Shown: positions 10,651 to 34,867 of the stretch, one piece after another
Layout of the letters: every line of letters starts with the position of its first letter
Numbering within the stretch: position 1 is the stretch's first letter
Virus record (IMG/VR): IMGVR_UViG_2684622580_000006
Source: a virus
Lineage: Duplodnaviria; Heunggongvirae; Uroviricota; Caudoviricetes
Strand: one strand, 5' to 3'
Length of the DNA stretch: 34,867 nucleotides
Notes under the pieces: model-generated
Told to the model about the DNA's origin: nothing
The model's database searches: none
What the model saw: only the letters and a program-made list of their open reading frames with translations
Program-made: the position numbers and the translations under genes

Positions 10651-10655
10651 GATTT

Positions 10656-12419: not shown

Positions 12420-12426
12420 ACTCAAA

Positions 12427-15923: not shown

Positions 15924-15926
15924 ATA
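15919..15926 (+). promoter_or_regulatory. TATAAATA (T4 late-promoter-like octamer) upstream of the 15944 gene
   Basis: Exact TATAAATA overlapping the terL stop, 18 nt before the next ATG. Confidence 0.35.
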
Positions 15927-16438: not shown

Positions 16439-18000
16439 CATTAAAAGAATTTTTCACATTTAAAAAACCAGAACCTGAAAAGCGTTCGAAGGGTTACAGA
16501 TTAGTAAATTACAAACAACCGAAGCTTATTATCGATAACGACAAAGCTTATGGTTCAGAAATGAAACGTCTTATGGGTCCTCGTGTTGACCGTTTGGATG
16601 GTGATTTCAATACTAATCTGATCAGAACTGCAACGATTAATAACGAGATTCGAGGCAACGTTGAAAAACTGCGTGATATGTCCCGAACTCTGACAGTTAA
16701 CAGTCCGTTTGCAAAACATGCAGCACAATATCAGATTGATAACGTTATTGGTGAAGGTATTAATCCTCAACTGCGTATTCTTCAATCTAATGGTAAACCG
16801 AATAAGAAACTGAACTCTGCTATTTCAAATCAGTTTTATTTCTGGGCAGACTCTGCAAAACGTTTCAGTAAAAACGAGCGTATGAACTGGCGCAGATTCC
16901 AAGAAATGGTTGAACGTTCTCGTTTCGTTGATGGTGAAGTTTTTATCCGTATCTATGAAACAGAAACTGAATTTAAACTCGAACTAATTGAAGCTGCTCG
17001 CTGTAAATTCGGTGAAAGAGCAACAACTGAAAACGGTTATATTCTTGACGGTATCGAATACGACGCATCGAATACACCGATTCGTTATTACTTTGACAGC
17101 GTAAACCAATCGACTCAGACAGCATCAGGAAAGTCTTATTCTGTTGAAGCATCAGACATTATTCACTATTTCAAAGACGAGTTCCCTGATCAGCGTAGAG
17201 GTTATCCAGAGATAACTCCTAATATTGACGTAATGAATCAATACGACGCTTTCACAAAAGCCACTCTTGTTCAAAAACGTGCTGCCGCAAGTTCTATGGG
17301 TTTCATCACTCAAGATAAAGACGGTCAGGATAATATCGAACTCGATGACGATAACGAAATGCAAGAAACTCCTGAAATCATTCAGAACTTTGAATCAGGA
17401 ACAATTCATCAATTACCTGCTGGTTACGATATCAAGCAATTTAGCTCTACTCAGGGCGGTGATGATTACTTGAATTTCACAAGTCGTCTGGAAGATATGC
17501 TTGCAATGGGTTACGGCTTTTATAAGCAAGGCTGGAAAGGTGATACGTCAGGTATTAACTATTCTGCGGCTCGTTTTGGTGACTTAACTCAACGTAATAA
17601 ATTCCGTTCTGTTCAGCGCAATGTCAAAGAGCAAGTTTTTGAAACTATCTTCGAACGTTGGTTGACTTGGATGATTATGCAAGAGCGAATTCAAATGCGC
17701 ATGACTGCTATTCCAGAAGTGTTAAGACAGACTGTTTGGACATATCCAAAATGGGCATCAATCGATCCAAGCAAAGACGCACAGAAAGACGCGCTTGATG
17801 TTGAAAACGGTTTTAAATCTGCTGCTGACGTAATTATTGAACGCGGTGAAGATCCAGAACTGGTGTTTGCTCAGATTGAACAAGAGAAAACTCGTTTTGT
17901 TCCGAAATACAGTAATCAAATTGCGGTTGCTTCTGTTGCTGCTGATGCACAAGTGGAAGTTGCTGAAATTAATTCGGATAACAGCCAGGAAAACATCTAA
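16435..18000 (+). CDS. Portal protein (lambda gpB family)
   Basis: 521 aa; RLDGDFNTNLIRTATINNEIRGN...QYQIDNVIGEG and the C-terminal KDAQKDALDVENGFKSAADVIIERGEDPELVFAQIEQEK align to corresponding lambda gpB segments. Confidence 0.85.
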   Translation: MTLKEFFTFKKPEPEKRSKGYRLVNYKQPKLIIDNDKAYGSEMKRLMGPRVDRLDGDFNTNLIRTATINNEIRGNVEKLRDMSRTLTVNSPFAKHAAQYQIDNVIGEGINPQLRILQSNGKPNKKLNSAISNQFYFWADSAKRFSKNERMNWRRFQEMVERSRFVDGEVFIRIYETETEFKLELIEAARCKFGERATTENGYILDGIEYDASNTPIRYYFDSVNQSTQTASGKSYSVEASDIIHYFKDEFPDQRRGYPEITPNIDVMNQYDAFTKATLVQKRAAASSMGFITQDKDGQDNIELDDDNEMQETPEIIQNFESGTIHQLPAGYDIKQFSSTQGGDDYLNFTSRLEDMLAMGYGFYKQGWKGDTSGINYSAARFGDLTQRNKFRSVQRNVKEQVFETIFERWLTWMIMQERIQMRMTAIPEVLRQTVWTYPKWASIDPSKDAQKDALDVENGFKSAADVIIERGEDPELVFAQIEQEKTRFVPKYSNQIAVASVAADAQVEVAEINSDNSQENI

Positions 18001-18019
18001 ATACATTCAGTAAAACAAA

Positions 18020-18053: not shown

Positions 18054-20030
18054 ATGCTAAAACTAAAACGCGATTTCGAAGCCCAAGAAATTAAAATTAC
18101 TGATGATAGTTATGAAATTGCGTTCTCAAGTGAAACTCCTGTTGAACGTCAAATTCTCGATAGTTACGGTCAACCAATAACAGTTAATGAAATTCTTTTG
18201 CATGACGGTCCTCAAAATGCTGACCTCGAGCGAATCAATAACGGCGCTGCTCTGTTGTTTAACCATAATTTCGACAATCATCTAGGCGTTGTAATTCCCG
18301 GGTCTGTAAGAATCGATAATGACCGTAAAGGTCGCGCTGTTGTTAAATTCAGTAAAGTTGGTCAATTAGCTAACGAAATTAAATCAAAAATCGACGAAGG
18401 AACAATTTCTAAAATTTCTTTCGGCTACGACATTATTGAATATGAACTCAAAGGAGACGACTTGTTAGTTTCTCGTTGGAGTCCGTATGAAATTTCTTTC
18501 GTTACTGTTCCTGCTGACGACAAAGTTGGCTTGGGAAGACTTCTAAATACAGATGACAAAACAATTAACGTTGAAGGAAAAAGAATGAATTTTGGTGAAA
18601 TCACTCTCGAAGAACTTCAAACACTTTCTCGCGAACAACTTGCGGAAATGAATGTTGAAGAAATTGAAGCGATGCCAGAAGAACTTCGTTTGAAGCGTGA
18701 AGAACTATTAGCGGAAGAAGCTGATATTCAGGATATCAAAGAAGAAGTTCAAGAAGCATCCGAAGAACAGACTGTTCCAGAAAAACAGGAACAAGAAGTA
18801 CAGAAAACCGAAGCTGAAATTGAGGCTGAAAAAGCTGCTGAAATGGAAGCGCTAAATAAAGAAAAAGAACGAGTTGAAGAAATCGAAGATATTTCGGTTC
18901 GATACAAAGTTCCTTACGAAAAAACGAAATCTGCTATTGAAGACAAAATGTCTGTTTCTGATTTCAAACGCTCTATTAAACCTAATAACGCTCCTACGGT
19001 GGTAAGAAAAATGACTAAAGATACTCAAATTGAACTTGAAAACAAATTTAATCTGGCTAACGCAATGCGCGCAATTGCTGACGGTAAAGCACTGACTGGT
19101 GCAGAAGCTGAATATACTCAAGAAATGATTTCTAAACGTCAGAAAGCTGGTCGCGGTATCGTTTCTAACGGTCTGTATCTGCCTCTGTCAGTTCTGAAAG
19201 GCAAACGCGCTATTAACACTGTCCCGACTGTTTCCGCGATTCAGCAAGTTGAACAGCGTTATGACAGCTTTGTTGAAATGCTGCTTGCTCCGACTGTTCT
19301 AGGTCGTATGGGTGTTAACTTCCTGACTGGTCTGAATACTCCGATTTCTGTGCCTAAGCAAACTGCTAGTTCTGTTGATGCTTTCGGTTTCGTTGATGAA
19401 AACGGTGCTTCTCCAGAAGGCGAAAGCAAATTTGCTAACGTTCAGTTCATGCCGAAAACATTTACTGGTGGTAACCCGATTTCTCGTCAAGCGATGCTGA
19501 CTATGCCGAATCTTGAACAGTTTATTTCTGATCATATCGTTAAGCACTCACGCGCTAAACTGGAAGCTCTGATTCTGGGTTCTGCAACTGACGCTAAAGC
19601 TCCTGAATCTCTGGACGCTCAATTGACCGCTACTTCTATGGGCATGACCTATAAAGAATTCGTTAAAGCTGCTGCTAAAGCGAAAGGTAAAGGCGTTGAC
19701 ATGGACAAGTTCATGTATCTGATGGATGCCGAAACTGAAGGTGATCTGAAAACCACTCTGCGTGACGCTGGTGTTGCAGGTTACATCGTAGGTGAAGACA
19801 ACAAACTGGGTGGACACGAAGTTGTTGGTTCCGGTCTGGTTAAAGATGGCACTATCTTTGCTGGTGATTTCTCTGCTCTGACTGTTGCTGAGTGGGAAGG
19901 TATCGGTATTGATATCGACGACACAACTTATCGTAACGCAGGCGCTATCGTTCCTCGTGTTTGGGCTGACATCGACTGGAAAGTTACTGCTGACGACCGT
20001 CTGTTTAAATACGTAAAAACGGGAGCTTAA
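18054..20030 (+). CDS. Fused prohead protease - scaffold (coiled coil) - HK97-fold major capsid protein
   Basis: N-terminus carries U35/HK97-protease-like motifs (NHNFDNHLG; ISFGYD; YEISFVTVPAD); a central acidic coiled coil (about residues 190-290); the C-terminal 350 aa look like an HK97-type capsid protein. Confidence 0.75.
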   Translation: MLKLKRDFEAQEIKITDDSYEIAFSSETPVERQILDSYGQPITVNEILLHDGPQNADLERINNGAALLFNHNFDNHLGVVIPGSVRIDNDRKGRAVVKFSKVGQLANEIKSKIDEGTISKISFGYDIIEYELKGDDLLVSRWSPYEISFVTVPADDKVGLGRLLNTDDKTINVEGKRMNFGEITLEELQTLSREQLAEMNVEEIEAMPEELRLKREELLAEEADIQDIKEEVQEASEEQTVPEKQEQEVQKTEAEIEAEKAAEMEALNKEKERVEEIEDISVRYKVPYEKTKSAIEDKMSVSDFKRSIKPNNAPTVVRKMTKDTQIELENKFNLANAMRAIADGKALTGAEAEYTQEMISKRQKAGRGIVSNGLYLPLSVLKGKRAINTVPTVSAIQQVEQRYDSFVEMLLAPTVLGRMGVNFLTGLNTPISVPKQTASSVDAFGFVDENGASPEGESKFANVQFMPKTFTGGNPISRQAMLTMPNLEQFISDHIVKHSRAKLEALILGSATDAKAPESLDAQLTATSMGMTYKEFVKAAAKAKGKGVDMDKFMYLMDAETEGDLKTTLRDAGVAGYIVGEDNKLGGHEVVGSGLVKDGTIFAGDFSALTVAEWEGIGIDIDDTTYRNAGAIVPRVWADIDWKVTADDRLFKYVKTGA

Positions 20031-20101
20031 TTAACACAGGAGAACAAGCTTCTCCTGCTAAAGTTAAAAAGCCACGTGCTCTTAAGGTGAAATAAAAACG
20101 A

Positions 20102-20126
20102 AGGACTCCGAAAGGGGTCCTTTTTT
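20102..20126 (+). terminator. Intrinsic terminator after the capsid gene
   Basis: aggactcc-gaaa-ggggtcct stem with GAAA loop followed by tttttt. Confidence 0.6.
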
Positions 20127-20136: not shown

Positions 20137-20147
20137 CTAAATAAAAG
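20137..20147 (+). promoter_or_regulatory. Late-promoter-like motif CTAAATAAAAG
   Basis: One of several copies of CTAAATAAA(G) lying 13-30 nt upstream of late-gene start codons. Confidence 0.4.
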
Positions 20148-20161
20148 AAAAAGGAGACAAC

Positions 20162-20458
20162 ATGATTTTCCCATATACAGAAAAACAAAAACAGTCTTTC
20201 TTAACTCGTTTCGGTCAAAAAATTAAAATCAACGATAAAGACGCTCTCGGCATTGTTGAGATTGAAATTAATAACGATAACGGACAAGTAAGCGAGACAC
20301 TTTATATAACCGCTGATATTAATTCAATTAAGCAAGACGATTCTATTTTGTTAAACGAGATTTTGTATAACGTCGCTTATCTGACAAACGATGGTTCAGG
20401 ACTCGTGAATTGTTATCTTGCTTATAAAACTGAACAGGAGACCTCATTCTATGATTAA
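20162..20458 (+). CDS. Hypothetical structural protein (98 aa), possible head completion / adaptor
   Basis: AAGGAG SD; position between the capsid gene and the tail genes. Confidence 0.55.
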   Translation: MIFPYTEKQKQSFLTRFGQKIKINDKDALGIVEIEINNDNGQVSETLYITADINSIKQDDSILLNEILYNVAYLTNDGSGLVNCYLAYKTEQETSFYD

Positions 20459-20849
20459 TATGCCACGCTTGGGAATTAAACGAGCACTGGAAGAAATAAT
20501 TGTAAAAGAGCTAAAACTGAAATACGTAAAAAATGCTTTTACAACTGGAGTTACAGAAACAGTTCAAGTGATGATTCCAGAAATGACAGAAGAATACACA
20601 AGAATTAATCTTCAATCGAAGCTATCAGCCGTTTTGAATATTACGATTAACGTTTTCTCTGAGAAAAAAGAAACAGACGTTCACAAAGCTGTTTACGACC
20701 TGATTTCTATTAAAGCTGATGATCCGAAACTTCGAGAATTTAAAATCAATAAAATTTATCCGAGTTCGAGTTTTACCGATTACGACGGTGAAGCATCAAA
20801 TGGTCATGTTAGCGCACAAGTAATTTTAACTTTCGAATACATAATGTGA
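20451..20849 (+). CDS. Hypothetical structural protein (about 132 aa)
   Basis: The ATG at 20451 (AGGAG upstream) overlaps the upstream stop; the track start 20418 lies inside the previous gene. Confidence 0.5.
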   Translation: MINMPRLGIKRALEEIIVKELKLKYVKNAFTTGVTETVQVMIPEMTEEYTRINLQSKLSAVLNITINVFSEKKETDVHKAVYDLISIKADDPKLREFKINKIYPSSSFTDYDGEASNGHVSAQVILTFEYIM

Positions 20850-20856
20850 GGCAGAA

Positions 20857-21885
20857 ATGACAAATGATATTTTTGTAGGAAATAACGTAAGAGTTTCAGT
20901 AAACCCAGAAGTCGTTGAACAACCCGGCTATCACGACCCAGGATATATTTCAACTGCTAATCTTGCTGCTTTTCCTGTTATCGGTTTCAAGAAAGATGTC
21001 CAATCGCTAGAAGACTTTCGCGATGACTTTACGGTTAAATTATCCGGTGACGTAACAGTTAATGACACTTTTATAAGTCTTTTTGAAACTTCTGATGACC
21101 CAGTTTATCAGTTGCTTGATGAAGCGTTAATGGAAAAGAAACTAATCAGATTCAGAAACCTTTATGTTATCGATGGTGAATCGAAAAAAGAAAATGAATC
21201 CGGTCTGTATCATATTTTCAACGCTTGGGTAACTAAGAAAGAAACAACAGGCTCCGAAAACTCAGTTGTTACTACCACTTTTAATCTTTCTCCTGATGGT
21301 CAGATTTTCACTGGCTTTGCTGAATTCACTGCTCCGTTAAACGTTGGTGATTATGGCGTTGGTGCTGGTACAGAAGAAATCGAAGGTGTTAAAGATTTAG
21401 GTCTGTTGAGTGGTAATAGATGGGTAACAGTTGACGCAACGAACAGCGATAACCCTTATAACTCTGGCACGTCTGCTATGGCTATTCAGCATCCTGATGG
21501 ACAAGGTTGGGAGCTTATTGGTTCGTCAGTCGGTAATCCAAGTATCAGAATCAGAAATAAACAAATTGCACACGACGAATCTGTTACAGAATCTCCGTGG
21601 GTGAAAGTCTATACAGAACTTGAACGCCCTACTCCTGAAGATATTAACGCATTGCCAATTACTGGTGGAACTCTGAAAGGTTCACTTGTTATTGAGGAAT
21701 ATCTAACAGTACGTAAAAAGATTTCTGCTCCGCAAGGTGAAATTCTGGCTCTAAATAGTAATGAAATTAACTCAACTTCTGTAAAGGTCAAAGGCTCAGA
21801 AGTCTATTCTCCAAGTAACAAACCAACACCATTAGAGATTAATTGTGTAGCGTTAGGAGAAACTTTAGATGCAGGAGTTTTTTAA
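20857..21885 (+). CDS. Structural protein with a fiber-like C-terminal segment (342 aa)
   Basis: Contains LPITGGTLKGSL, a motif type common in tail fiber/tube accessory domains; lies between head and fiber genes. Confidence 0.55.
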   Translation: MTNDIFVGNNVRVSVNPEVVEQPGYHDPGYISTANLAAFPVIGFKKDVQSLEDFRDDFTVKLSGDVTVNDTFISLFETSDDPVYQLLDEALMEKKLIRFRNLYVIDGESKKENESGLYHIFNAWVTKKETTGSENSVVTTTFNLSPDGQIFTGFAEFTAPLNVGDYGVGAGTEEIEGVKDLGLLSGNRWVTVDATNSDNPYNSGTSAMAIQHPDGQGWELIGSSVGNPSIRIRNKQIAHDESVTESPWVKVYTELERPTPEDINALPITGGTLKGSLVIEEYLTVRKKISAPQGEILALNSNEINSTSVKVKGSEVYSPSNKPTPLEINCVALGETLDAGVF

Positions 21886-21897
21886 CGGATAAAGAAA

Positions 21898-24729
21898 ATG
21901 GCAAATAACAAAGTTAAACATTATAGAACAGACGTCGCCGGAAGAAAGCCAGAAGCAAAAAACATGCTTGATGGTGAAATCGCTATTAACTTAGCCGATC
22001 GAAAGATTTTCACTAAATTCGGTGACGCTGTTATTAACATCGGTAATGGTGCCGACGCTGTTGTTGAAGGTAGTCAGACCTTTACTGGCAAAATTAAAGC
22101 AAGTGATATTGAATCCGATTCGAATCTGACTTTAAAAAATCTTGATAAAAGCGATATTGTTTTTGCTGATGAACACGGTAAAGCAAAAGCACGTATTAGT
22201 TCTCCTGCTCAGACAGACTCTAAAGGTGAACTTCGTGTTACGGTAGCGAAAGGAAAAGCTACAGGAGAGAGTTCTGACTTCGTGCTTAACGGTAATGGTC
22301 AGTTATCTTTGCCTGCTGCTCCTGTTGCTCCTGATAGCGCTACGCGTAAAGATTACGTTGATTCTGAAATCAGCAAAGTTCAAACAGGTTCAAGTGCTGA
22401 CCTGACGAAACTCGAACAGAAAGTTGATGCTAACGACGCTGCTATTAACACTCGCGTTGATAATCTGAATTCAAAAGTTGACCAGAACGACACGGCTATT
22501 AATACGAAAGTTGATGCGAATAAAGCTGATGCTGACGAAAAGATTAAAGCAGTTAATGACCGTTTGACTGTTGATAATCAGACTCTGAAAGACATGATTG
22601 ACACCAAAGTTAATAAAGCTGGCGACACGATGACTGGCGACTTAACTGTTCCTAAGTTAAATGCTACTGACATTAGAACCACAAAGATGCTCGTTACAAC
22701 TAATCCTGTTGAAGCTAACGCTCTTGGTGATAACTCTATTGCTATGGGTGATGGTGATACAGGTCTGAAATGGCAATCTGATGGCAAATTGCAATCATGG
22801 TCGAATAATATTCCTGTAACAGAACTTGATAAGTCTGAAATCAAATTTAATAGAAACGCAACCTTTCGTTTCAGAAGCGATAACGGTGAAATTGACTTGA
22901 TGACTCCTGATGGTATGAGTCTTGTTAAAATTGATACTACGAAAGACGGTAATAACACTGGCGATTCTATCAGTTATCTGGGACTTGTTAACTCAGGAAA
23001 ATATAATCACTATCTGAGAGGCACAGGCAGAACTTATATTGATACTCACGAAGGTCTCGGTGTTGCTGGTCCTACAAGTTTCTATCAGACTATTTTTAAC
23101 AACAAAGGACACGGAAGCTACGATAGTGAATCATTGCCTATTTGGACTGATGCTGGATTTCAGACAAATCATCTTCGTAAACTTAGAGCTAGAGACGCCG
23201 CTACAATTTTTCATGAAGCTGTTGTTGGTGATCATGAAGATCCTAGAGCTAGACAATCGATAAGTTGGTGGCATGGCAATGGTCCTGAAACTTTCATTGC
23301 CTCGATGCAACAGGATGGAACAATTAACGCATATCGTTTTAATACGTCGGCTGAATATGAAGCGATTAATCTAAAAACGAAAAATCGCGAAGCTGCATAT
23401 ATTAGAGGCACAGACGGTGACAAAACCTCATGGTTATTTGGTCGTTTGAATCCCGGTGATAACAGGTTAATTGCTCGTTCTACTATCGACCAAGACGGAA
23501 GTTCTACTGTTGACTTGGAGTTGGATTCAGGAAGCAAATACTTCGGTGTTAATGTTGGTGGGAATAGAATTGCAAGATTTCATGAAAAGAATATTATTAT
23601 CGACGGAAGAAAATGGGCTGCAGACAATAGTCACGCGTGGGCAGACCAATGGAATCAACTTCCTCCTGTTGCTATAGAATTTGGTGCTGTTCCTGCTGCG
23701 AGTGATTATTATCCTGGTTATGCGTTACAAAGTAGCTCTGTTGGTTTTGGTTATTCAACTCGATTCGAACTTGGTATGATTCGTGCTCCTGCTGATCAAT
23801 TCGGTAAAGGTATTCTTCGTGTAGGAACATATGAAGAAGGTGCGTCGAAGAGAATGGCGAATTACGAGTTTGATATTGACGGAAGATTCGCAGTTCCTGG
23901 TAAAATTAATACTCCTTACGTGGAAACCGATCGTTTAACAAGCTTTGGTGTTCATACTAATAACTTGCTTGGTGGAAACTCTATTGCTTTCGGTGACCAA
24001 GATACGGGTATTCGTCAAAGATTCGACGGAAACTTAGAGATTATTACAGATTCGCTTCATCTGGCTACGTTTAATCCTTCAGGCTTAACTATTAATGATC
24101 GTATGATTTCAGTTAACGCTCCCAATAATTCTCGCGGTATTTACGTTGGAAATGTGAGAACTGGTAATGCTAATGCGATGATTCAAGGTCAAGTCGATGG
24201 ATGGGCTGATTGGGGTGCATGGCGTGATCGTCCTGCGGGAATGACCGTTGAAGCTCCTACTCGTTCGAAATGTATTAATATCTGGAAACATGTTCACTGG
24301 GGCACTGAATGGGGCGCTGCGATGGACGTTTATAATCCCGACGGTGCAGGTCCTGAAGCCCAATTACACGTTGGTGGTGCAAACTATCATTTCAGCGGTA
24401 ACGGAACAGCAAACGCCATTTCTTGGGTTAGCACTTCTGATAAACGTCTGAAATCAAATTTTGAAGAAATTGAAAACGCGGTTGATAAAGTCGAGAAACT
24501 TACTGGTTACGTATACGATAAGAAATCTGATTTAGTCGAAACTGAATATTCATTCGAAGTTCGTGAAGCAGGTATTATCGCTCAAGAATTGCAAGAGGTT
24601 CTTCCAGAAGCTGTTAGTTCTTTCGGACCTGACAAAATTCTTGGTGTTAACTCTGCTGCTGTAAACGCGTTGTTGGTTAATGCTATCAAGGAATTAAGTG
24701 CTCGCGTTAAAGAACTTGAAGCTAAATAA
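21898..24729 (+). CDS. Tail fiber / tailspike with a C-terminal S74 intramolecular chaperone (self-cleaving) domain
   Basis: 943 aa; imperfect repeats VDANDAAINTRVDNLNSKVDQNDTAINTKVD and GDTMTGDLTV; C-terminus SWVSTSDKRLKSNFEEIENAVDKVEKLTGYVY...GIIAQELQEVLPEAVS...LLVNAIKELSARVKELEAK is the classic peptidase S74 chaperone signature. Confidence 0.8.
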   Translation: MANNKVKHYRTDVAGRKPEAKNMLDGEIAINLADRKIFTKFGDAVINIGNGADAVVEGSQTFTGKIKASDIESDSNLTLKNLDKSDIVFADEHGKAKARISSPAQTDSKGELRVTVAKGKATGESSDFVLNGNGQLSLPAAPVAPDSATRKDYVDSEISKVQTGSSADLTKLEQKVDANDAAINTRVDNLNSKVDQNDTAINTKVDANKADADEKIKAVNDRLTVDNQTLKDMIDTKVNKAGDTMTGDLTVPKLNATDIRTTKMLVTTNPVEANALGDNSIAMGDGDTGLKWQSDGKLQSWSNNIPVTELDKSEIKFNRNATFRFRSDNGEIDLMTPDGMSLVKIDTTKDGNNTGDSISYLGLVNSGKYNHYLRGTGRTYIDTHEGLGVAGPTSFYQTIFNNKGHGSYDSESLPIWTDAGFQTNHLRKLRARDAATIFHEAVVGDHEDPRARQSISWWHGNGPETFIASMQQDGTINAYRFNTSAEYEAINLKTKNREAAYIRGTDGDKTSWLFGRLNPGDNRLIARSTIDQDGSSTVDLELDSGSKYFGVNVGGNRIARFHEKNIIIDGRKWAADNSHAWADQWNQLPPVAIEFGAVPAASDYYPGYALQSSSVGFGYSTRFELGMIRAPADQFGKGILRVGTYEEGASKRMANYEFDIDGRFAVPGKINTPYVETDRLTSFGVHTNNLLGGNSIAFGDQDTGIRQRFDGNLEIITDSLHLATFNPSGLTINDRMISVNAPNNSRGIYVGNVRTGNANAMIQGQVDGWADWGAWRDRPAGMTVEAPTRSKCINIWKHVHWGTEWGAAMDVYNPDGAGPEAQLHVGGANYHFSGNGTANAISWVSTSDKRLKSNFEEIENAVDKVEKLTGYVYDKKSDLVETEYSFEVREAGIIAQELQEVLPEAVSSFGPDKILGVNSAAVNALLVNAIKELSARVKELEAK

Positions 24730-24753
24730 CGAAAATGGGAGAAATCCCCTTTG

Positions 24754-24763
24754 CTAAATAAAC
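24754..24763 (+). promoter_or_regulatory. Late-promoter-like motif CTAAATAAAC
   Basis: 28 nt upstream of the ATG at 24791. Confidence 0.4.
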
Positions 24764-24790
24764 TATATTAACTCAAATAGGAAATTAAAA

Positions 24791-25270
24791 ATGGCAGACA
24801 AATTTGATATTTTTGCTGGCTCTTACGTCAGTGTGTTCTATAACTCAGAAATCACAAACACTGATATTAATTCAGAAAAGTTTGTTGAAATTCCTGAAAC
24901 TGGTGCATTCCCTTCTACGGGTATTGAGCGAGAAGTTATTACAGCTCCTAACTTCTCTCACAAATATTCCCGTAAACTGGTTGGTCGTGGCTCTGTTCCT
25001 GATATCGACTTGACTGTTAACTATATTCCAGAAAGCGTTCATGATGTTCTGATTAAGCTTGCGGAAGATGGCAAACGTGGTCAGTTCAAAATCGTTTATT
25101 GGGTCGATGCTTCTAAAGATCTGGGTGTTGCAAAAGTCTATAACGGCTTCTTGTCAAGCGCTGTTCACAATGGTGGAGAATCAGAAGTTTCTGGTCTGAC
25201 TCTGACTCTTTCTGTTGACGGTGGTCCAGTTGCTTCAGGCGTTATCGATACAACTACTCCTACTCCGTAA
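24791..25270 (+). CDS. Putative major tail (tube) protein
   Basis: 159 aa, beta-rich, size and pattern of siphovirus tube proteins; preceded by the late motif and followed by a strong terminator. Confidence 0.5.
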   Translation: MADKFDIFAGSYVSVFYNSEITNTDINSEKFVEIPETGAFPSTGIEREVITAPNFSHKYSRKLVGRGSVPDIDLTVNYIPESVHDVLIKLAEDGKRGQFKIVYWVDASKDLGVAKVYNGFLSSAVHNGGESEVSGLTLTLSVDGGPVASGVIDTTTPTP

Positions 25271-25286
25271 TATCGAAGTTGAACGA

Positions 25287-25311
25287 AGGACTCCTTGTGA
25301 GTCCTTTTTTT
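25287..25311 (+). terminator. Intrinsic terminator after the tail-tube-like gene
   Basis: aggactc-cttgt-gagtcct followed by ttttttt; same AGGACTC stem family as the terminator at 20102. Confidence 0.6.
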
Positions 25312-25315
25312 GGCT

Positions 25316-25325
25316 CTAAATAAAG
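25316..25325 (+). promoter_or_regulatory. Late-promoter-like motif CTAAATAAAG
   Basis: Exact 10-mer also at 29449 and 30938; 13 nt upstream of the ATG at 25339. Confidence 0.4.
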
Positions 25326-25338
25326 TCAGAGGTGAAAC

Positions 25339-25755
25339 ATGTTTAAATTTCAAGCTGACTTATCAAAATTACTGAATCGATATATCAACAAAGAACATCA
25401 ATTCGGTCAAAACGACTGTAATATCCTTGTTGCTGAATATATCGACCTTGTTTGTGTTACTGAATACACAGACAAATTAAAAGACAAATATACGAGTATT
25501 CCTGAAGGTCTCAAGATTTGCAAAAAACTCACTGGTTTTAACAACGTTCTCGAAGCTTGTGAAAATCATCTTGAGAAATCAGAAAAGATAGAAACTGGCT
25601 CGGTTATCTTAATTAAGAAAAAACATAAAAACCGTGTCTATTACGTTGCGTCCATCGTTTTCAATAATCAAGCATTAGTTGAACACGAAAACAAATACAA
25701 ACTAGTGAACGTCAACGATTTTAACTTTGAATTAATTTTTAACAGGAGAAAATAA
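25339..25755 (+). CDS. Hypothetical protein (138 aa), translationally coupled to the gpJ-like gene
   Basis: Stop overlaps the next ATG (TAATG). Confidence 0.55.
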
Positions 25756-28700
25756 TGGCCATTGCTGCTATTGGTGCAATTATTGCGGGTGCTTCCGCTG
25801 CTGCTGCTGCATATGCCGCTGGTGCTGCAATTGCTGTTGCTATCGGTATTGGTGTTGCTGTTGCTGCTGTTTCGGGATTAATGTCCTATTCGATGAAAGA
25901 ATCTGTTCCTCGATTTAATAGCGCAGACACTGCAACGACATTAGGAACAACGTCTGACCCTGCAAGCGTAATTCCTATTATCTACGGCGAACAACGCACA
26001 GGGACAATTAACGTTTGGAAAGCTGTTGGTGTCGATACGACTTATCTGGTGCAAGTCTTTGCAATCTGTGAAGGAGAAGTTGATAGCTTCAAAAACCTGT
26101 ATATGGATAATCAGAAAATCTTACTTGATGGAACTTACAGAGATGGAATTTTAGATAAAGGCTCTATCGCTGCCGAATATCAGAATTTCGTTGAAATTGA
26201 ATTCTCAACTGGTAAACCATACGGTCACGTTTTCACGCTTGCTCAAAAATATCTGGGTAATGATGTTGCTGGTTGGCCTGATTCTGCAACTGGTAATGGT
26301 ATCGCTTCTGTGTGTGTTGTTATGCGCAAACGTAACACAGACTTAGAAAACCAAGCTGATATTCTGCAACCTAACAGTCAAGTAGCTGTTGACGTTAGAG
26401 GACGTTTGATTACAGACCTGAACACAGGAGGCATCGTCCCTTCAAACAATGGTCCTAGTCAAGCAGTCGATTATCTGACGAACGAACGTTACGGTCTGGG
26501 TATTCCACTTGATAAAATCAATCTTGATAGTTTCAAGCAATGTGCAGAACACGCAAAACTGAACAGTCTGTTTTCTAACGGTGCAACTGACCCGAATGGT
26601 TCATTCAAAGAAAACTTAACTCAGATTGCAGGTGCTTTTAACGGTATTATCACTGAATCTTTCGGACTGGTTACTTGCGTTATCGATGGTCCTGGTGTTG
26701 TTCAATATGATTTCAACGAAGATAATATTAATGCTGGAACTGTTAGCTTGAATGATGGCGGAACAGAGAATTACTACAATACTCTGAACGTGAAATATCA
26801 AGATCCTGAAATCGATTATTCTGACCAAGTTCTTCGTTATCCGTCTGACGTAACAAATGATGGAACTATCGCGAAAGACAAACGTATTATCGCAAAAGAT
26901 ATCAGTTACAGATTCGTTAAAGGAAAAGACCAGTTAGACAAAATTGCTTCAATCGAACGAAGCAAATCACTGTTACAACAGGTTATTAGTTTTTCTTCTA
27001 CTGATGCTTATACCGTACAAGTATGGGATATTATCAGAGTTAATTTCGAAGAACTGGAACTGACTGATTCATTATGGCGAGTAACTAACGTTGATCGCAC
27101 GATGGAAAAAGGTGCTGCTGGTATCGTTACTATTACCGCTGCTGAATATATCGAAGAAGTTTATACCGATCTTGACTACGCGAAAGACCCGGATAACTCA
27201 GGAAGTAACATTCCAAACAAAGCTGTTCTTATTCCACCGAAGAATCTGACAGTTAAAGCAGTTGCTGAAACAGCACTCGGAAGAACTTTGAAAGTGCAAT
27301 GGACGTCTGAACCTGATTATAACCGCGCAGGTTATTATATTCAGTATAGTCTTGCTGGCAAGAACTCCTGGACTCAAGCAGGTTTCACATCAGGCGATTA
27401 TTTCTTGATTATGAGTCTTGATCCTAATCAGAAATTTGATATTCGTGTTTGTGCTTCTGGTGTTGTGTATCGTTCAGATTGGGTATATGTGAATAACGTT
27501 AACCCTGATGTTACGTATAACTTACCAAGCGTCACAGGATTACGCCTAGTGAACGCGGTTGAAAATCAGTACACCACTAACAAGACTCAATTTGAATTCG
27601 CTTGGGACGACCAGAGCGCACAGAAATTCTATGTTGACGACACGTTACAGACATTCGGTGAAGTTTTTCAATATTACGAAATTAAACTCGAAGGTCAACG
27701 TCCTGTAATTTGCAAGACTAAAGATTTAGGTTTTGTATATGACTTTAATATGAACTTGGGTAATGGTCTGAGTCGTGAACTGAAAGTTTCTGTTACTGCA
27801 TACGGTCACGCTGGTATGAAATCAGATCCGAGTATTATTACTGTTAAGAACAATCAAGCTCCTGCGATTCAAGGTTTCACAGCTTCTAATGGTCCTGGAA
27901 TGCTGATGTGTTCATGGAATGACCCACGCGATAATATTCCTGAAGTTCCTGACTTCAAAGGCACAATCGTTCATATTGCGAAAGACCAAAGCTTTAATGA
28001 AATTGTCCACGTTTATTCAAGCTCAAGTCCGTTTTTAGACAACTTCCCGTTAGAAGATGGTCAATTCTATGTTCGTGCAGCATGGTATGACGTTTTCGGA
28101 CAAGACCAGATTACTTGGTCACAGGCGACTTATATCGATATGAAATGGGATATTCCATGGAACGACGATATGAAAGACCAGTTGGAAGACTTGTTAGATC
28201 TGAACAACCGAGTTGATGGTGCTATCGATGAAGCGTTGAAACTTGCTAAGGAATATACTGACACCGAGGTTATTGCTTCTGAACAAAAAGTTGTTACCGA
28301 ACTGAATCAGACAATCACAACGAAAAACACCGAACTGTATACACAAATTACAGATGAAACGAATGGCGCTATTAATCAGGCTATTACGATTCAAGAGGCG
28401 AATTTCGATGGAAAACTGAATTCAGCAATCACTAAAGTTGAAAAAACTCAAGCTGATGATAGAGAGGCAACTGCAAGTTCTATTAGCCAACTGAAAGCTG
28501 AAACTGACTCGGCAATTGCAAGTGTTTCAACAGAAGCAAAAGCAAGCGTTGACGAACTGACAGGAACTATTAACAGCAAATGGGCAGTTCAGACTAATGC
28601 CGACGGTGTTGTTGCTGGTATCAGTATGCTCGCTAATAAAAATGCTGACGGTTCGAAATCATCAAGCATTATTTTCAACGCTGATAAAATCGCTATTACG

Positions 28701-29444
28701 AATAACAACACTCCTGAAGGTGCTGTTCCTCCGTTCATGGTTGCAGATAATAAGACTTATCTTCAAGATGCTATGATTCGCGATGCTTCAATCGGTAATG
28801 CGAAAATTGGTTATGCTGCTATTGATACAGCGAAGATTCAAGACGCTGCTATTAACAACGCTAAAATTCAAGATGGTGCTATTACATCAGCGAAGATCGG
28901 TAATGCTCAGATCGGTAATGCTCAGATTGCTTATGAAATATCGTCTGATAACTGGTTCCCTTCCGGTGGTACTCAAGGTTGGACAATCAGAAAAGACGGT
29001 TGGGCTTCTTTCCAAAACGTTAATATCAGAGGTAACATTCAAGCAGATTCTGGTTATTTCGCAGGTGAAATCAGAGGCGGTTCAGGTTATTTCACAGGAA
29101 CTGTATACGCTGACAGAATTGAAGGTGACGTTATCAAAATGGGTCATATAGATCCGTGGACAACAGTTCATATTCCTGCTGTTAACTGGAACAGAGTAAT
29201 TGCTATTCCAAACCTTGCGATTTCAGGCAGAACTTATTCTGGTGGCGCTTGGGGCTACGGAACTGCATGGATTAATATGACGAACGGTCAAGAAATCGTA
29301 AGAACAGTTACCAGTGCAATGAGTGGTTCAAACGGTGGTACGGCTATTATCTATGCGGGACAAGCTGTTGATTTGAGTTACGGTGCTGACTTGAATCATG
29401 CGACCGCAGCAAGAGCAGTTTACTTTATCAGTAAACAACAATAA
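25755..29444 (+). CDS. Host-specificity / central tail fiber protein (lambda gpJ-like) with an unusual hydrophobic N-terminal segment
   Basis: 1229 aa; [23 protein letters not shown] resembles gpJ ISEGPIEGPVDGLKSVLLNSTPVLD; FN3-like block ([13 protein letters not shown]...); [13 protein letters not shown]...[10 protein letters not shown] resembles gpJ GIGLSMEDTEEGK...FVAQGNQIF; first 45 residues are Ala/Gly/Ile-rich. Confidence 0.6.
28783..28932 (+). repeat. Tandem hexapeptide-coding repeats inside the gpJ-like gene
   Basis: Encodes [52 protein letters not shown]; the nucleotide repeat atcggtaatgctcag is directly duplicated. Confidence 0.6.
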
Positions 29445-29448
29445 CGTT

Positions 29449-29458
29449 CTAAATAAAG
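29449..29458 (+). promoter_or_regulatory. Late-promoter-like motif CTAAATAAAG
   Basis: Exact 10-mer; 30 nt upstream of the ATG at 29489. Confidence 0.4.
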
Positions 29459-29488
29459 ACAAGGAGGTCTTTAAAAAGGAGATTCAAG

Positions 29489-29773
29489 ATGGTCGATATG
29501 GCACTGATCATTTCCATCTTGGGTGCTCTAGGAGGTTTCTTGGCTTGGGTTTATGCCGAAATTAAATCAAACAATGAAAAACGACTTGACCTTGAGAAAC
29601 GTTTCTCAGACATCGAAAAAAGCATTGCCGTTAATGACGCAAAAGATGCTTCGCTTATAAGCGATATAACCAGACAACAGGATGAATTTCGAGAGGTCAA
29701 ATCTGATTTGAAGAATTTAGAAGGAAGGACATCAAAGCTAGACATCGACCTAGCAGTTCTAAGAGGAAAATGA
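29489..29773 (+). CDS. Membrane-anchored coiled-coil protein (holin / i-spanin-like topology)
   Basis: 94 aa; N-terminal transmembrane helix MALIISILGALGGFLAWVYA followed by a charged coiled coil; AAGGAG SD. Confidence 0.5.
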   Translation: MVDMALIISILGALGGFLAWVYAEIKSNNEKRLDLEKRFSDIEKSIAVNDAKDASLISDITRQQDEFREVKSDLKNLEGRTSKLDIDLAVLRGK

Positions 29774-30246
29774 AAAGAAAAGAGATTCCGATTTATAAGC
29801 AAGAACTCTTTCAAAAGCAAAAAGGTCTTTGTGCGTTAACAGGCATAAAGATTCACGAAGTTAATAAAGCCCATCTTGACCATGACCATATTTTAACAGG
29901 CTCTAACGCAGGCAGATGCAGAGGATTATTAATCGCTCAAGCAAACGTCCTCGAGGGTAGAATAAAACATCAGTTTAAACGTTCAGGTCTCGATGGGAAA
30001 ATTGACTACATCGAGTTTTTAAAGAATCTTGTTCAGTATCTTGAAAAAGACTACTCAGACAATCCTACGCATCCACAACTTATTCCCGATTTAAAGAAAG
30101 CGTTCTCTCGAAAAAATCTTTCTGAGATGAAAGCTATTACAGGTTCAAACCTTAAAACGAAAAAGGAGCTTGAAAAAGTCTACTCAAACCAAATAAAGGT
30201 GAAATATGAAAATGAAATATCTCCAAGCAATGGCAAAACACGCTAA
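29770..30246 (+). CDS. Endonuclease VII (T4 gp49-like Holliday junction resolvase) homolog
   Basis: 158 aa; HLDHDHILTGSNAGRCRGLL...EGRIKHQFKRSGLDGKIDYIEFLKNLVQYLEKDYSDNPTHP aligns closely to T4 Endo VII HLDHDHELNGPKAGKVRGLL...EGQMKHKFNRSGLKGQGVDYLEWLENLLTYLKSDY. Confidence 0.85.
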   Translation: MKRKEIPIYKQELFQKQKGLCALTGIKIHEVNKAHLDHDHILTGSNAGRCRGLLIAQANVLEGRIKHQFKRSGLDGKIDYIEFLKNLVQYLEKDYSDNPTHPQLIPDLKKAFSRKNLSEMKAITGSNLKTKKELEKVYSNQIKVKYENEISPSNGKTR

Positions 30247-30403
30247 AGATTATCTTATTGTTCTATTTCTCGTTACTGTAACTTATAACACTGTTGCTGT
30301 TCCTGTTCTGCAAGCTTTCGATATTAAAGCGCCTAAAATGATTCTTATCAGCGAAGAACAGATTAAAACATTCGGGGCACTTCTGATGTCAGGAGTGAAC
30401 TAA
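30206..30403 (+). CDS. Small membrane protein (65 aa), holin/antiholin-like
   Basis: AGGTGA SD 5 nt before the ATG; one hydrophobic helix YLIVLFLVTVTYNTVAVPVLQAF; overlaps the 3' end of the Endo VII gene. Confidence 0.4.
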   Translation: MKMKYLQAMAKHAKDYLIVLFLVTVTYNTVAVPVLQAFDIKAPKMILISEEQIKTFGALLMSGVN

Positions 30404-30945
30404 TGGCAAAAGCAAAAGATGTTATGAAAGACCTTGAAAAATGGCGAATCAAAGAATCTGACGTGTTCAGTAAGAAAGTAACCAAAGCGTCTAAACTCGC
30501 TTCTGTTGAGTTGCAAAGAAAAATCAATAGACGTGTTGACGGACCAGTTAATTTCACTAAGAACGCAGTAGGTTTCAGTTTCAGATACGATCAGAACGGG
30601 TCACGAAATAGAATATTCATCAAAGACAAGCAGGCTGATTATCTTGCTCCGTTGATTGATGATAACAAAGGAATTAACAAGTTTGTTCCAACTGGCGTAA
30701 GAGGTTCAAAGAACAAATTCGGTAACATTCCTAACTTGAAATCAAGAAATAATCTTGAAGCTGTCAAACAGAAAAAAGATGGCGTAACTCGAACGATCCT
30801 CATTAAAACTAACGTTAAAAAGCAAGACCGTCGTTTAATTGCTGTGTTCAAGAAAAATCAACATAGAAGAAAAACTCTGGGTTCATGGAATCAAATCTCT
30901 GACGATTTTTTCAAAACCGTTAAGCGTGTTGCGGGCACTAAATAA
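30403..30945 (+). CDS. Basic hypothetical protein (180 aa)
   Basis: Lys/Arg-rich; coupled to the preceding ORF. Confidence 0.55.
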   Translation: MAKAKDVMKDLEKWRIKESDVFSKKVTKASKLASVELQRKINRRVDGPVNFTKNAVGFSFRYDQNGSRNRIFIKDKQADYLAPLIDDNKGINKFVPTGVRGSKNKFGNIPNLKSRNNLEAVKQKKDGVTRTILIKTNVKKQDRRLIAVFKKNQHRRKTLGSWNQISDDFFKTVKRVAGTK

Positions 30946-30947
30946 AG
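30938..30947 (+). promoter_or_regulatory. Late-promoter-like motif CTAAATAAAG
   Basis: Exact 10-mer overlapping the stop of the upstream gene; 16 nt before the ATG at 30963. Confidence 0.4.
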
Positions 30948-30962
30948 TCAAAAGGAGAACAA

Positions 30963-31280
30963 ATGAACATTCACGATTTTGATACTTACAGATTAGACGA
31001 ACTTGCCGACATCTACGTTAACGAGATTAATCCCGAGTCAATGACTGTTCCTTACGGTTGCGAACACATCAAAGATAAGCGCATTAAAAAATATCTGTTC
31101 AACGATAAAAACGTTTTTATTGTTTCAACACAAAAGAAAAAACCTAATTGTCATTTCAAATTAGGACAGACAGTTCGACTGCAAGGTCCATTTTTTGAGA
31201 CCGAAGCGAAGAACTTAGGAATGATTGAATATATCCACAAAGGTTTCAGAATGTACGGATATTTCTTTCAATGGAAATAA
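30963..31280 (+). CDS. Hypothetical protein (105 aa)
   Basis: AAGGAG SD; followed by an imperfect hairpin plus T-tract at 31286-31307. Confidence 0.55.
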   Translation: MNIHDFDTYRLDELADIYVNEINPESMTVPYGCEHIKDKRIKKYLFNDKNVFIVSTQKKKPNCHFKLGQTVRLQGPFFETEAKNLGMIEYIHKGFRMYGYFFQWK

Positions 31281-31307
31281 CAAAAGGAAGCCTCGCGCTC
31301 CCTTTTT

Positions 31308-31319
31308 CATAAATAAAAG
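31308..31319 (+). promoter_or_regulatory. Late-promoter-like motif CATAAATAAAAG
   Basis: Variant of the CTAAATAAA motif, 25 nt upstream of the ATG at 31344. Confidence 0.35.
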
Positions 31320-31343: not shown

Positions 31344-31652
31344 ATGAATTTCGATGAAATGTTAGCATCATTATCACCAAAACGCGAAGCTGTTGAAATC
31401 AACGGTTATAAATTCTATGCACGTCCGATGACTGTATCCGAGTTTGGTGAATTCTATTTCAAAAATGAAAACACAGAAGAACGTAATGACCGAATGATTC
31501 TGAATTGTATTCAGCACGAAGACGGAACAAGCGTTTTTAAAGAAATCTCTCAAGTTCAGAAACTTTATACAACTGTTCGTTCGCAACTCGCAAGCGCTGT
31601 TTCAAACGCTAGTATTCTGACTAAGGATTCAGACATTCTGGAAAAGAACTAA
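31344..31652 (+). CDS. Tail assembly chaperone (lambda gpG-like)
   Basis: 102 aa ORF immediately upstream of the tape measure gene; the next ORF overlaps in the -1 frame. Confidence 0.6.
   Translation: MNFDEMLASLSPKREAVEINGYKFYARPMTVSEFGEFYFKNENTEERNDRMILNCIQHEDGTSVFKEISQVQKLYTTVRSQLASAVSNASILTKDSDILEKN
31640..31646 (+). other. Candidate -1 programmed frameshift site G_GAA_AAG (G to GT fusion)
   Basis: In the chaperone frame ...CTG GAA AAG AAC TAA; the -1 frame is open from 31625 and continues into the 31688 ORF, which has no SD of its own; the Lys tRNA can re-pair on AAA. Confidence 0.45.
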
Positions 31653-31687
31653 GACAGAACTGGGCAAAATCATTTCAGTATCGAACA

Positions 31688-32050
31688 ATGTTACGTCGCG
31701 GATTATCTAACGAAGAAATTCAACAGATGTCCGTAATGATGTATTATGAATTATGGTTTTTCGATTCGTTTATTGAACCACAAAGTCCTGTCTATAACGA
31801 TTTCTATCAAGCTCGATTGATTCACACTATCGAAGCAAATAACCCGAATCTGACCAAAGAGTACAGGAAAAAGTTGAACATGAAAGACCATCAGCTTATT
31901 AAAGATTCTGTGTTTAAGTCTCAAGAAGAAATCGAAAAAGAGAAAGAACAACAGGAGATTAAACGTAAGAAAGCTATTGAATCGATGTTCGACCCAGCTC
32001 TGTTAGATAAAGTTAAACTGAGAAAAACAAAAAAGGTGAATAATGGCTAA
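31688..32050 (+). CDS. Tail assembly chaperone C-terminal extension (gpT-like), probably expressed as a G-T fusion
   Basis: 120 aa ORF in the -1 frame relative to the chaperone ORF; no ribosome-binding site upstream of its ATG; overlaps the tape measure start by 8 nt. Confidence 0.5.
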   Translation: MLRRGLSNEEIQQMSVMMYYELWFFDSFIEPQSPVYNDFYQARLIHTIEANNPNLTKEYRKKLNMKDHQLIKDSVFKSQEEIEKEKEQQEIKRKKAIESMFDPALLDKVKLRKTKKVNNG

Positions 32051-34510: not shown

Positions 34511-34867
34511 CTAAAGCACAGCTTGAAAACTCTGCCATTCAGGTGCATGCATTAGTACCGCGCTTTGTTCATTTCTATTCCAGATAGATACAGCTTTTCC
34601 CATATAGAAAAAATGCGATGTAGCATCGTTACTTTTCTTTTCGCTGCTTTTCCCTGTTTTTGTATATACGACAACAAGATCGCCAGCACGAACAGACTTA
34701 TCCGGAAACCAAAATGTTTCATAAATGCCAGTGTTCACTGACTCATTCTCAAATCCTGTTTGTAGTAGGATAAATTCACCAATATTGCATGAACTGTCAA
34801 CTCGAATGACAATTCGTTCCTTCTCTAAGTTTCCTGGTTCGCGAATTGCTGTAATATTAACTTTCAT
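34511..34867 (-). CDS. Hypothetical protein, convergent with the tail module; may be truncated by the window edge
   Basis: 118 aa ORF whose ATG is the last 3 nt of the window; no recognisable motif. Confidence 0.5.
   Translation of the reverse strand: MKVNITAIREPGNLEKERIVIRVDSSCNIGEFILLQTGFENESVNTGIYETFWFPDKSVRAGDLVVVYTKTGKSSEKKSNDATSHFFYMGKAVSIWNRNEQSAVLMHAPEWQSFQAVL

Follow-up and report, generated by a model that had tools for sequence, protein, structure and literature searches.

Organization of the ybiT–ldtB element

We analysed a stretch of 34,867 nucleotides (nt), deposited in IMG/VR as virus record IMGVR_UViG_2684622580_000006 and referred to here at its full length as the window, with a focus on a short motif, [A/C]TAAATA, that precedes its virion genes and is likely to be a late promoter of the phage T4 class. 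YbiT, a host ABC-F ATPase, is encoded near the left end, and the genes ldtB, ybiR, mntR, mntS, ompX and dps lie past the right end. Because of these flanking genes, the window is assigned to the Escherichia coli chromosome. The element itself, inserted between ybiT and ldtB, is ~34 kb long and has a G+C content of 39%. Its left part is organized as follows (aa, amino acids; HTH, helix-turn-helix).

153–1745: YbiT, host ABC-F ATPase
1785–3290: serine recombinase
4215–5437, minus strand: distal-tail and hub genes (phrog_1302, phrog_2048)
5471–5956, plus strand: T4-type lysozyme
6597–7493: TIR-domain cargo gene, CAP12/Pycsar-type
7683: small-terminase-like gene
10656–11428, minus strand: operon of a 54-aa HTH protein and a 202-aa protein (202-aa gene, 10656–11264)
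11430–12427: non-coding stretch of ~1 kb
12427–13041: GIY-YIG/NUMOD3 (Seg-like) gene
13528–13929, minus strand: HTH gene, repressor-like

The structural genes follow on the plus strand in the order GpA-type terminase, portal, protease–capsid fusion, gp37-like fibre, major tail protein, DUF6950 protein, J-like tip, Endo VII, tail assembly chaperone (31344) and tape measure (32043–34442). Matches of window genes to phrog_15, phrog_21, phrog_617, phrog_13674, phrog_31 and PF09327 are those of a lambda-like packaging module and a siphovirus tail; on the genes of relatives, the GpA-type terminase (PF05876/PF20454) and the lambda-type portal (PF05136) were also matched. In addition, the family carries T4-type accessory genes, namely Endo VII, gp36/gp37-like fibres, an e-type lysozyme, Seg-like and HNH nucleases and, in locus L018, Cef.

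Distribution of the motif in the window

The initial annotation had reported the exact 10-mer CTAAATAAAG upstream of structural genes at 25316, 29449 and 30938. These coordinates are correct, and a copy inside the capsid gene at 18852 had been overlooked. The four copies compare with 0.12 expected, and none of 100 shuffles reached four. The variants described at 20137, 24754 and 31308 and the octamers at 14017, 15919 and 17997 were also found, and the distance of 13–30 nt from motif end to ATG holds for the sites listed in that annotation. By contrast, the 10-mer did not stand up as the unit: the bases after TAAATA vary, and inspection of every upstream region yielded the common core [A/C]TAAATA. 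The 8-mer TAAATAAA was not enriched by count (7 versus 4.07 expected), yet all seven copies are on the plus strand. Among octamers, the window has one exact TATAAATA, at 15919, and four CATAAATA. The sites and their associated terminators are listed below, with gene starts taken from automated calls (SD, Shine-Dalgarno sequence; +1, predicted transcription start).

5435–5442, plus strand: CATAAATA, putative late promoter of the T4-type lysozyme gene; predicted +1 at 5448; conserved in L005
5455–5462, minus strand: CATAAATA, putative late promoter of the distal-tail/hub operon (5437 to 4215); faces the 5435 site
11605–11611, minus strand: CTAAATA, function uncertain, ~176 nt upstream of the operon for the 54-aa HTH and 202-aa proteins
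12350–12356, plus strand: CTAAATA, 70 nt 5' of the GIY-YIG/NUMOD3 gene; same site in L008 and L010
14017–14024, plus strand: CATAAATA before terL; predicted +1 at A14030; SD GAGGTG; likely start ATG at 14040
15919–15926, plus strand: TATAAATA, the canonical T4 octamer, overlapping the terL stop, before the head–tail joining gene at 15944
17997–18003, plus strand: CTAAATA overlapping the portal stop, 50 nt before the protease–capsid gene at 18054; kept in all relatives
18852–18861, plus strand: exact CTAAATAAAG inside the capsid gene, sense strand
20100–20123, plus strand: intrinsic terminator after the capsid gene; stem differs among relatives, pairing kept
20137–20143, plus strand: CTAAATA after the capsid terminator, serving the gene at 20162; predicted +1 at A20149; orthologous site in eight loci
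24722–24728, plus strand: CTAAATA, possibly incidental, spelled by the final codons and stop of the tail-fibre gene
24754–24760, plus strand: CTAAATA before the major tail protein gene at 24791; preceded by a weak hairpin, 24737–24749
25285–25307, plus strand: intrinsic terminator after the major tail protein gene
25316–25322, plus strand: CTAAATA, within an exact 10-mer, before the DUF6950/J-like tail-tip operon (25339–29444); predicted +1 at A25328
29449–29455, plus strand: CTAAATA (exact 10-mer) before the gene at 29489 (94 aa, hydrophobic N-terminus), then Endo VII at 29770
30938–30944, plus strand: CTAAATA (exact 10-mer) overlapping the stop of gene 30403–30945, before the gene at 30963
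31282–31306, plus strand: hairpin and T-tract terminator before the chaperone/tape-measure operon
31308–31315, plus strand: CATAAATA before the chaperone and tape-measure genes; predicted +1 at A31321

Within the 20.5-kb structural region (13930–34442), 10 of the 14 plus-strand copies of [A/C]TAAATA fall inside the 655 non-coding nt that make up 3.2% of its length, and the minus strand has no copy. Shuffling of these gaps, which are 35% GC, gave 0.53 ± 0.73 copies with a maximum of four in 5000 shuffles. The motif is thus far above a shuffled control in the gaps and is not equally common in coding sequence or on the opposite strand. Of the intergenic gaps of at least 15 nt in this region, 9 of 11 carry it. 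In the 33 nt that separate the lysozyme gene from the divergent tail-tip operon, there is one copy per strand, each facing its own gene. Since neither the integrase and HTH genes nor the cargo genes have a copy, the motif is tied to virion, packaging and lysis genes.

The motif had also been said to lie often just after a terminator. Hairpins with T-tracts lie immediately before it at 20100–20123, 25285–25307 and 31282–31306; the hairpin at 24737–24749 is weak. Four of the ten non-coding copies (15920, 17997, 24722 and 30938) overlap the stop codon of the upstream gene and some of these may be incidental; the other six are clear of stops. The copy in the capsid gene is probably neutral or a weak internal start, because copies on the sense strand of genes are as frequent as expected. 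The 31652–31688 gap between the chaperone gene and the next open reading frame (ORF) is devoid of the motif; this ORF (31688–32050) overlaps the start of the tape-measure gene. The junction of a tail chaperone with its downstream ORF is the usual site of a programmed frameshift.

Conservation of the motif among related elements

Capsid homologs form a graded series, with identities of 66% in E. coli, 65% in Klebsiella, 53% in Serratia, 50% in Enterobacter, 47% in one further member and 54% in a member from a metagenome. The corresponding loci are 38–41% GC; their hosts are 50–59% GC. Among 5426 complete E. coli genomes, four carry most of a 23-kb query at an identity of at least 99%. The copy in strain MS 115-1 (L005) also lies between ybiT and ldtB, is also ~34 kb and matches 71% of the query at 88% identity. 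Its cargo is a reverse transcriptase of the retron Ec67 family (L005 9191–10945), and it does not have the genes of the right end. A profile search of genome contigs with the capsid alignment added two distant fragments of metagenome-assembled genomes and nothing else.

The orthologous gaps carry the motif in L005, L008, L009, L010, L016, L017, L018 and a 30.6-kb contig of Escherichia phage DCP80, described below, in which the capsid proteins are 47–88% identical. The same gaps are occupied in every locus, among them those 5' of the capsid, major tail and DUF6950/J genes and the one that follows the capsid terminator. The flanks of the gaps and the stems of the terminators diverge between relatives while the motif stays. 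The bases at positions −13 and −12 vary by lineage: NC is preferred in the window, L008 and L017, AA in L009 and L016, CA in L018 and TA in the DCP80 contig.

In the Enterobacter locus L016, the motif copies at 1681, 2025 (minus strand) and 5310 (plus strand) share a longer repeat, CCTGATTT(T/C)CTGTAATAAATAT, and precede small non-structural genes and an HNH gene. The repeat may combine the promoter with a regulator site. A sister group of ~33-kb low-GC elements lies inside hicB in many E. coli assemblies, with capsids ~42% identical (e.g. L102, NZ_CP195351.1 2520212–2560421). These have the serine recombinase at the opposite end and a Rha-family regulator, and are among several more distant elements with the same antisense depletion of the motif as that described in the next section.

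Promoter signatures

T4 late promoters consist of the octamer TATAAATA at −13 to −6 without a −35 element and are followed by an AT-rich segment; in a list of 50 such sites, 32 are perfect and nine have A at −13 (PMC2988020). In relatives of T4, T at −13 is poorly conserved, and Aeromonas phage Aeh1, whose gp55 has diverged, uses CTAAATA starting at −12 (PMC1524935).

We aligned 72 intergenic sites by the motif. Between −52 and −28, the information content was at most 0.1 bit, i.e., there is no −35 element. T was favoured at −14, and positions −5 and −4 were A-rich. At the predicted +1, 6 nt past the motif, the alignment has A at 47 sites, G at 16, T at 8 and C at 1, such that 63 of the 72 are purines; at the predicted −1, 47 are T or C and a single one is G. 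This fixed pyrimidine/purine signature is the usual pattern of a transcription start, here predicted from the alignment, at the distance expected for T4. The spacing from motif to SD is highly variable across the same sites.

The opposite strand provided further evidence. The coding sequences of eight loci, 160 kb in all, contain a single copy of the reverse complement of the motif, versus 37.4 ± 5.9 expected upon codon shuffling (the lowest of 1000 shuffles had 19). The sense motif occurs 29 times versus 26.5 expected. The eight loci are kin, so these counts are not fully independent, and the depletion is visible in each locus individually. Among 3294 hexamers, TATTTA ranked as the 16th most depleted, alongside restriction sites and internal SD-like words. 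As a positive control, T-even contigs had two antisense copies versus 12.0 expected; the negative control, phage T5, has the same GC content and showed no depletion (17 versus 12.7). T5 promoters are of the sigma70 type and T-even phages use gp55 promoters. A self-sufficient short DNA promoter would fire antisense if its complement lay within a gene, and the purge therefore points to such an element. By the same token, a signal that acts only in mRNA is disfavoured, as it gives no reason to purge the complement from coding strands.

According to sigma70 consensus scans, matches were at or below shuffle expectation in both arms of the element and in the DCP80 contig, with 37 versus 45.5 in the region of the motif sites. 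The initial annotation had assigned sigma70-like elements to the cargo genes. This is unsupported: consensus matches in 1700–14050 were not above chance (31 versus 38.9), and early promoters therefore cannot be assigned by such scans. The pattern of the MotA box, which marks T4 middle promoters, was not meaningfully enriched in the element.

Together, the position and strand bias, the conservation, the lack of a −35 element, the start-site signature, the antisense depletion and the identity of CTAAATA with the Aeh1 variant uphold the resemblance to T4 late promoters noted in the initial annotation. On these grounds, the motif is likely to be a T4-class late promoter.

A self-closing relative in the DCP80 record

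Among 50,697 phage records, a close relative of the capsid protein (57% identical) was found only in Escherichia phage DCP80 (PQ671644; L011), filed under Tevenvirinae, and no family member is deposited in this set as an independent phage. A megablast search of the structural region against phages returned a single short match, to DCP80. The record PQ671644.1 is labelled a complete genome and consists of scaffolded contigs with N10 between them; it has three copies of rIIA and two each of the exonuclease, primase and spackle genes. The first contig is self-closing at 30.6 kb, with bases 1–111 repeated at 30600–30710 directly before N10; the sequence after N10 is 100% identical to SP18-like T-even phages.

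The 30.6-kb genome is siphovirus-like and has no relationship to T-even phages. It has the gene set of the window element, at protein identities of 27–57%, in canonical tail order and without an integrase. TATAAATA precedes its transcription units on both strands and accounts for 7 of its 10 sites. The co-assembled T-even contigs have TATAAATA before soc, gp22 and gp18 and carry gp55, gp33 and gp45. In this one anecdotal case, drawn from a poor assembly, a packaged, non-integrating member of the family thus appears to have been sequenced with a T-even phage whose promoter form it shares. Literature searches on a T4-dependent satellite, on DCP80 and on the prophage context of retron-Ec67 returned nothing relevant.

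Search for the cognate factor

Promoters of the T4 late class are read by core RNA polymerase with a sigma factor of the gp55 family, aided by gp33 and the gp45 clamp. We therefore searched for these proteins in the element and its relatives. Using T-even gp55, gp33, gp45, RpbA and MotA as queries in phmmer (--max), no match was obtained in any of three sets: the window, the DCP80 contig and four other loci (ORFs of 40 aa or more); 85 further loci, covered to 10 kb around the capsid gene (ORFs of 50 aa or more); and the complete E. coli copies L005, L014, L015 and L102. Similarly, no late sigma, gp33 or clamp, nor any recognisable replication gene, emerged when all element proteins were compared with PHROGs and most of them with Pfam; several small ORFs have no assigned function. 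Accordingly, the gp55- or gp33-like genes for which the initial annotation suggested a search are not detectable in the window or its relatives. Its proposal of T4-like late transcription in a lambda-like chassis holds as regards the promoter class, the chassis and the lysozyme, Endo VII and Seg-like genes, and does not as regards T4-like late transcription machinery: gp55, gp33 and gp45 went undetected. A precedent for this combination is phage rV5, which has a T4-like late motif, TggTAaAAtA, without recognisable gp55, gp33 or gp45 (PMC3606486).

The only non-structural protein of unknown function common to all lineages belongs to a family of 202–305 aa. Its AlphaFold model has a beta-rich N-terminal domain and a coiled coil and is not all-helical; with a mean pLDDT of 57, it is of low confidence. 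A Foldseek search of the model against the PDB returned nothing with E < 0.04. As modelled, and with low confidence, the protein is not obviously sigma-like. PDB sequence searches with the 202-aa, 133-aa and 245-aa proteins returned nothing significant. The 202-aa protein of the window is a truncated member of a family of 283–331 aa (homologs P0146, P0152 and P0154). An FmdB-type zinc ribbon (PF09723) forms the end of some of the longer members; in PSS-15, this ribbon is a separate downstream ORF.

The 133-aa HTH protein matched sigma70 region 4 only at E ~0.5, which we took as generic HTH similarity. The HTH gene beside terL was considered and rejected as a universal late activator, as it is absent from L009, L010, L018 and the DCP80 contig.

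Other features of the element

The cargo slots are variable; in the window, they comprise 6298–10567 (the TIR protein and unknown genes) and 34511–34867 (two minus-strand genes). The tail module of the window is split and partly inverted, with the distal-tail and hub genes on the minus strand beside the integrase and the tape measure closing the gene order at the right end. The canonical order of major tail protein, chaperones, tape measure, distal tail, hub, DUF6950 and J is retained in two relatives, L017 and the DCP80 contig. Chromosomal copies are often damaged: IS3 splits terL in MS 115-1 (L005 15291–16411), and insertion sequences occur in further copies (L014 11993–13221; L015 5986–7214; H2 and H3). 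The window copy has none. The Prokaryotic Genome Annotation Pipeline gives no annotation for the fibre region of EN-1077 and PSS-15.

The non-coding region at 11430–12427 keeps its position in all family members, where it spans 1.1–1.8 kb and adjoins the operon for the 54-aa HTH and 202-aa proteins. It contains repeated CGCTTCGC-like units, repeated AACCAGATCTGAAAA and several inverted repeats, and is a candidate origin or packaging site. GATC is about two-fold under-represented in 1785–34867 (72 versus 146.5 ± 10.9); of these 72 sites, 13 lie in 1.7 kb of host DNA, and six are clustered within 330 nt of the non-coding region (11815–12147). GGATCC, CTGCAG, CGTACG and words containing CTAG are also strongly depleted in the genes of the family. 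These depletions suggest avoidance of restriction or of Dam.

The interval from the minus-strand HTH gene to terL contains a perfect palindrome, GGATTGAACTTTAACAATCC, at 13953–13972. This palindrome is probably an operator and overlaps TTGCAC-N17-TTAAAGT, a conserved sigma70-like promoter of the HTH gene. Rfam and tRNA scans of the window gave no matches.

A proposed mechanism and its alternatives

We propose that [A/C]TAAATA, placed at −12 to −6, is a '−10 only' element that acts as a T4-class late promoter. RNA polymerase would start ~6 nt downstream, usually at an A, giving leaders of 10–65 nt that begin just before the ribosome-binding site. The motif would head almost every head, tail, fibre, packaging and lysis transcription unit, and several sites would restart transcription right after the terminators behind the highly expressed capsid and major-tail genes. 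We tentatively favour a full reading in which these promoters would be read by a gp55-type sigma that a co-infecting T4-like phage (Straboviridae or Ackermannviridae) delivers in trans. That the motif is a promoter, that its reader is of the gp55 type and that a helper supplies it are steps that we infer from its distribution, its conservation, the strand-specific selection on it and its match to published variants, all of which are directly observed. Supply in trans is favoured because no reader or replisome genes were found in any member, because no member is recorded as an independent phage, because of the co-occurrence in DCP80 with a matching octamer and because the family carries T4-type accessory genes.

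The element would then be a helper-dependent, virophage-like satellite with virion genes of its own, borrowed late transcription and probably borrowed replication. It is possible, if a shade less so than the foregoing, that the 31–35-kb low-GC elements of Enterobacteriaceae as a group (those at ybiT–ldtB and in hicB and the 30.6-kb DCP80 genome) are virophage-like satellites of T4-like phages. In such satellites, the siphovirus particle, terminase, Endo VII and lysis genes would be silent until the helper provided the late sigma, the clamp and replication, and the −13/−12 variants (TA, CA, AA and NC) would track the promoter preference of each lineage's helper.

Several points weigh against the full reading. 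The integrase, the repressor-like HTH gene with its palindromic operator and the full complement of virion, terminase and lysis modules give the element the look of an ordinary temperate phage. An integrated element would also have to withstand T-even infection, during which cytosine DNA is degraded and its transcription blocked. The failure to detect gp55 by homology is no proof that a cognate factor is absent, given the precedent of rV5. In addition, some motif copies are only 5–10 nt from an ATG, too near to serve that gene. Finally, the DCP80 link is a single poorly assembled record that could come from a mixed lysate.

The same features bear on the alternative that the element is an autonomous temperate phage with the same promoter class, in which an unrecognised protein of its own, a divergent sigma or a sigma70 appropriator, redirects host polymerase after induction. 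The integrase, the repressor-like gene with its sigma70-like promoter and operator, the full virion and lysis set, the small ORFs of unassigned function and the example of rV5 are all compatible with this, and the lineage-specific −13/−12 preferences (NC, AA, CA and TA) suggest co-evolution with a cognate factor. Against this, the PHROGs and Pfam scans returned no sigma, the shared 202–305-aa family does not look sigma-like in a low-confidence model without a PDB match, the HTH gene is missing from four lineages, and no member has been deposited as an independent phage. We consider autonomy, the main alternative, rather unlikely.

The remaining alternatives dispense with a T4-class promoter. 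The motif could act in mRNA, as an A/U-rich translational enhancer, a ribosome standby site or an RNase processing or stability signal before the SD: it is always on the sense strand, 5–70 nt 5' of start codons and near the SD, and would be present in read-through transcripts. The purge of its reverse complement (1 versus 37), the variable SD spacing, the pyrimidine/purine signature at a fixed 6 nt and the identity with a known class of DNA promoter make this very improbable. Still less probable is that the sites are ordinary promoters for host sigma70, or another host sigma, for which TAAATA would be a degenerate −10 hexamer. Its AT-richness, its likeness to a −10 element and a T-A start as in TATAAT would fit, but there is no conserved −35 or TGn, consensus matches are below shuffle expectation and, by textbook sigma70 rules, no register of the motif gives both A at −11 and T at −7; moreover, −12 switches by lineage among elements within one host species. 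A functionless by-product of composition or of stop codons (TAA-ATAA) in AT-rich gaps might be suspected from the four copies that overlap stops and the 35% GC of the gaps. However, gap shuffles do not approach the ten observed copies, six of which are clear of stops; the motif is conserved in relatives at 47–66% identity despite flank divergence; and the antisense depletion is absent from T5 at the same GC. The shuffles, the conservation and the T5 control make this explanation extremely unlikely, and it was rejected.

To our knowledge, T4-type late promoters were thought to be restricted to large lytic myoviruses that carry gp55, gp33 and gp45. Here, this promoter grammar is found in a small integrated lambda/T5-like siphovirus element in which none of the three is detectable, and the same pattern recurs across an element family in E. 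coli, Klebsiella, Enterobacter, Serratia and Citrobacter. If the reader does come from a T4-like phage, the element would be the first known example of a satellite exploiting T-even-type phages and would represent a new satellite strategy, in which the virion is kept and transcription and replication are borrowed. It would then be relevant to phage therapy cocktails, to the biology of defence islands (through the TIR and retron cargo) and to 'contaminant' contigs in phage lysates. If the element instead has its own reader, an unrecognised class of sigma or appropriator is implied.

Comparison with known late-promoter systems

The window sites resemble those of T4 in having a −10-only box without a −35 element, in preceding virion and lysis genes on either strand, often after a terminator, in their predicted short leaders and in the antisense depletion. 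They differ in that most have C at −12, and their context differs in being a 34-kb integrated siphovirus-type element with a lambda-type terminase and portal, in which homology searches found no gp55, gp33, gp45 or replisome genes. Among T4-like phages, late genes of Slopekvirus phT4A and Krischvirus Phi1 are preceded by TATAAATA, CATAAATA and AATAAATA. In Citrobacter phage Ci1, gp23 is preceded by TCTAAATA and its terminator is directly followed by GCTAAATA, and the Ackermannviridae phage RPN242 has ACTAAATA/CCTAAATA and CCTAAATAccc. The window and these phages share one layout: capsid gene, terminator, motif, ~20–40 nt, SD and ATG. Aeh1, Ci1 and the Ackermannviridae have the identical 7-mer CTAAATA upstream of late genes with a variable −13; they differ in being myoviruses of 150–230 kb that encode their own diverged gp55. 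The motif reported for Ackermannviridae genomes is CTAAATAcCcc (PMC7283392), the cCcc extension of which is missing from the window sites.

Phage rV5 resembles the element in combining a T4-like late motif with undetected gp55, gp33 and gp45, and differs in its motif and in being an autonomous lytic myovirus of 137 kb, many of whose genes are uncharacterised. A 34-kb 'retron-Ec67' element was reportedly described by Hsu, Inouye and Inouye in 1990 at ~19 min of the E. coli map. The MS 115-1 copy is like it in size and in its Ec67-family reverse transcriptase, where the window carries TIR cargo instead.

For supply in trans, the P4/P2 pair offers a functional analogy, P4 being a mobile element with helper-type late promoters that are switched on by helper infection. 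P4 has no virion genes and takes P2 particles, and its promoters are read by the zinc-finger activator Ogr/Delta acting with sigma70. The window element differs in having its own virion genes and in the kind of reader proposed, a replacement sigma rather than an activator. Virophages such as Sputnik use the late promoter motif of their giant-virus host. They are eukaryotic and their proteins are unrelated to those of the element; the proposed analogy lies in possessing capsid genes of their own while using, through shared motifs, the transcription and replication factory of a helper.

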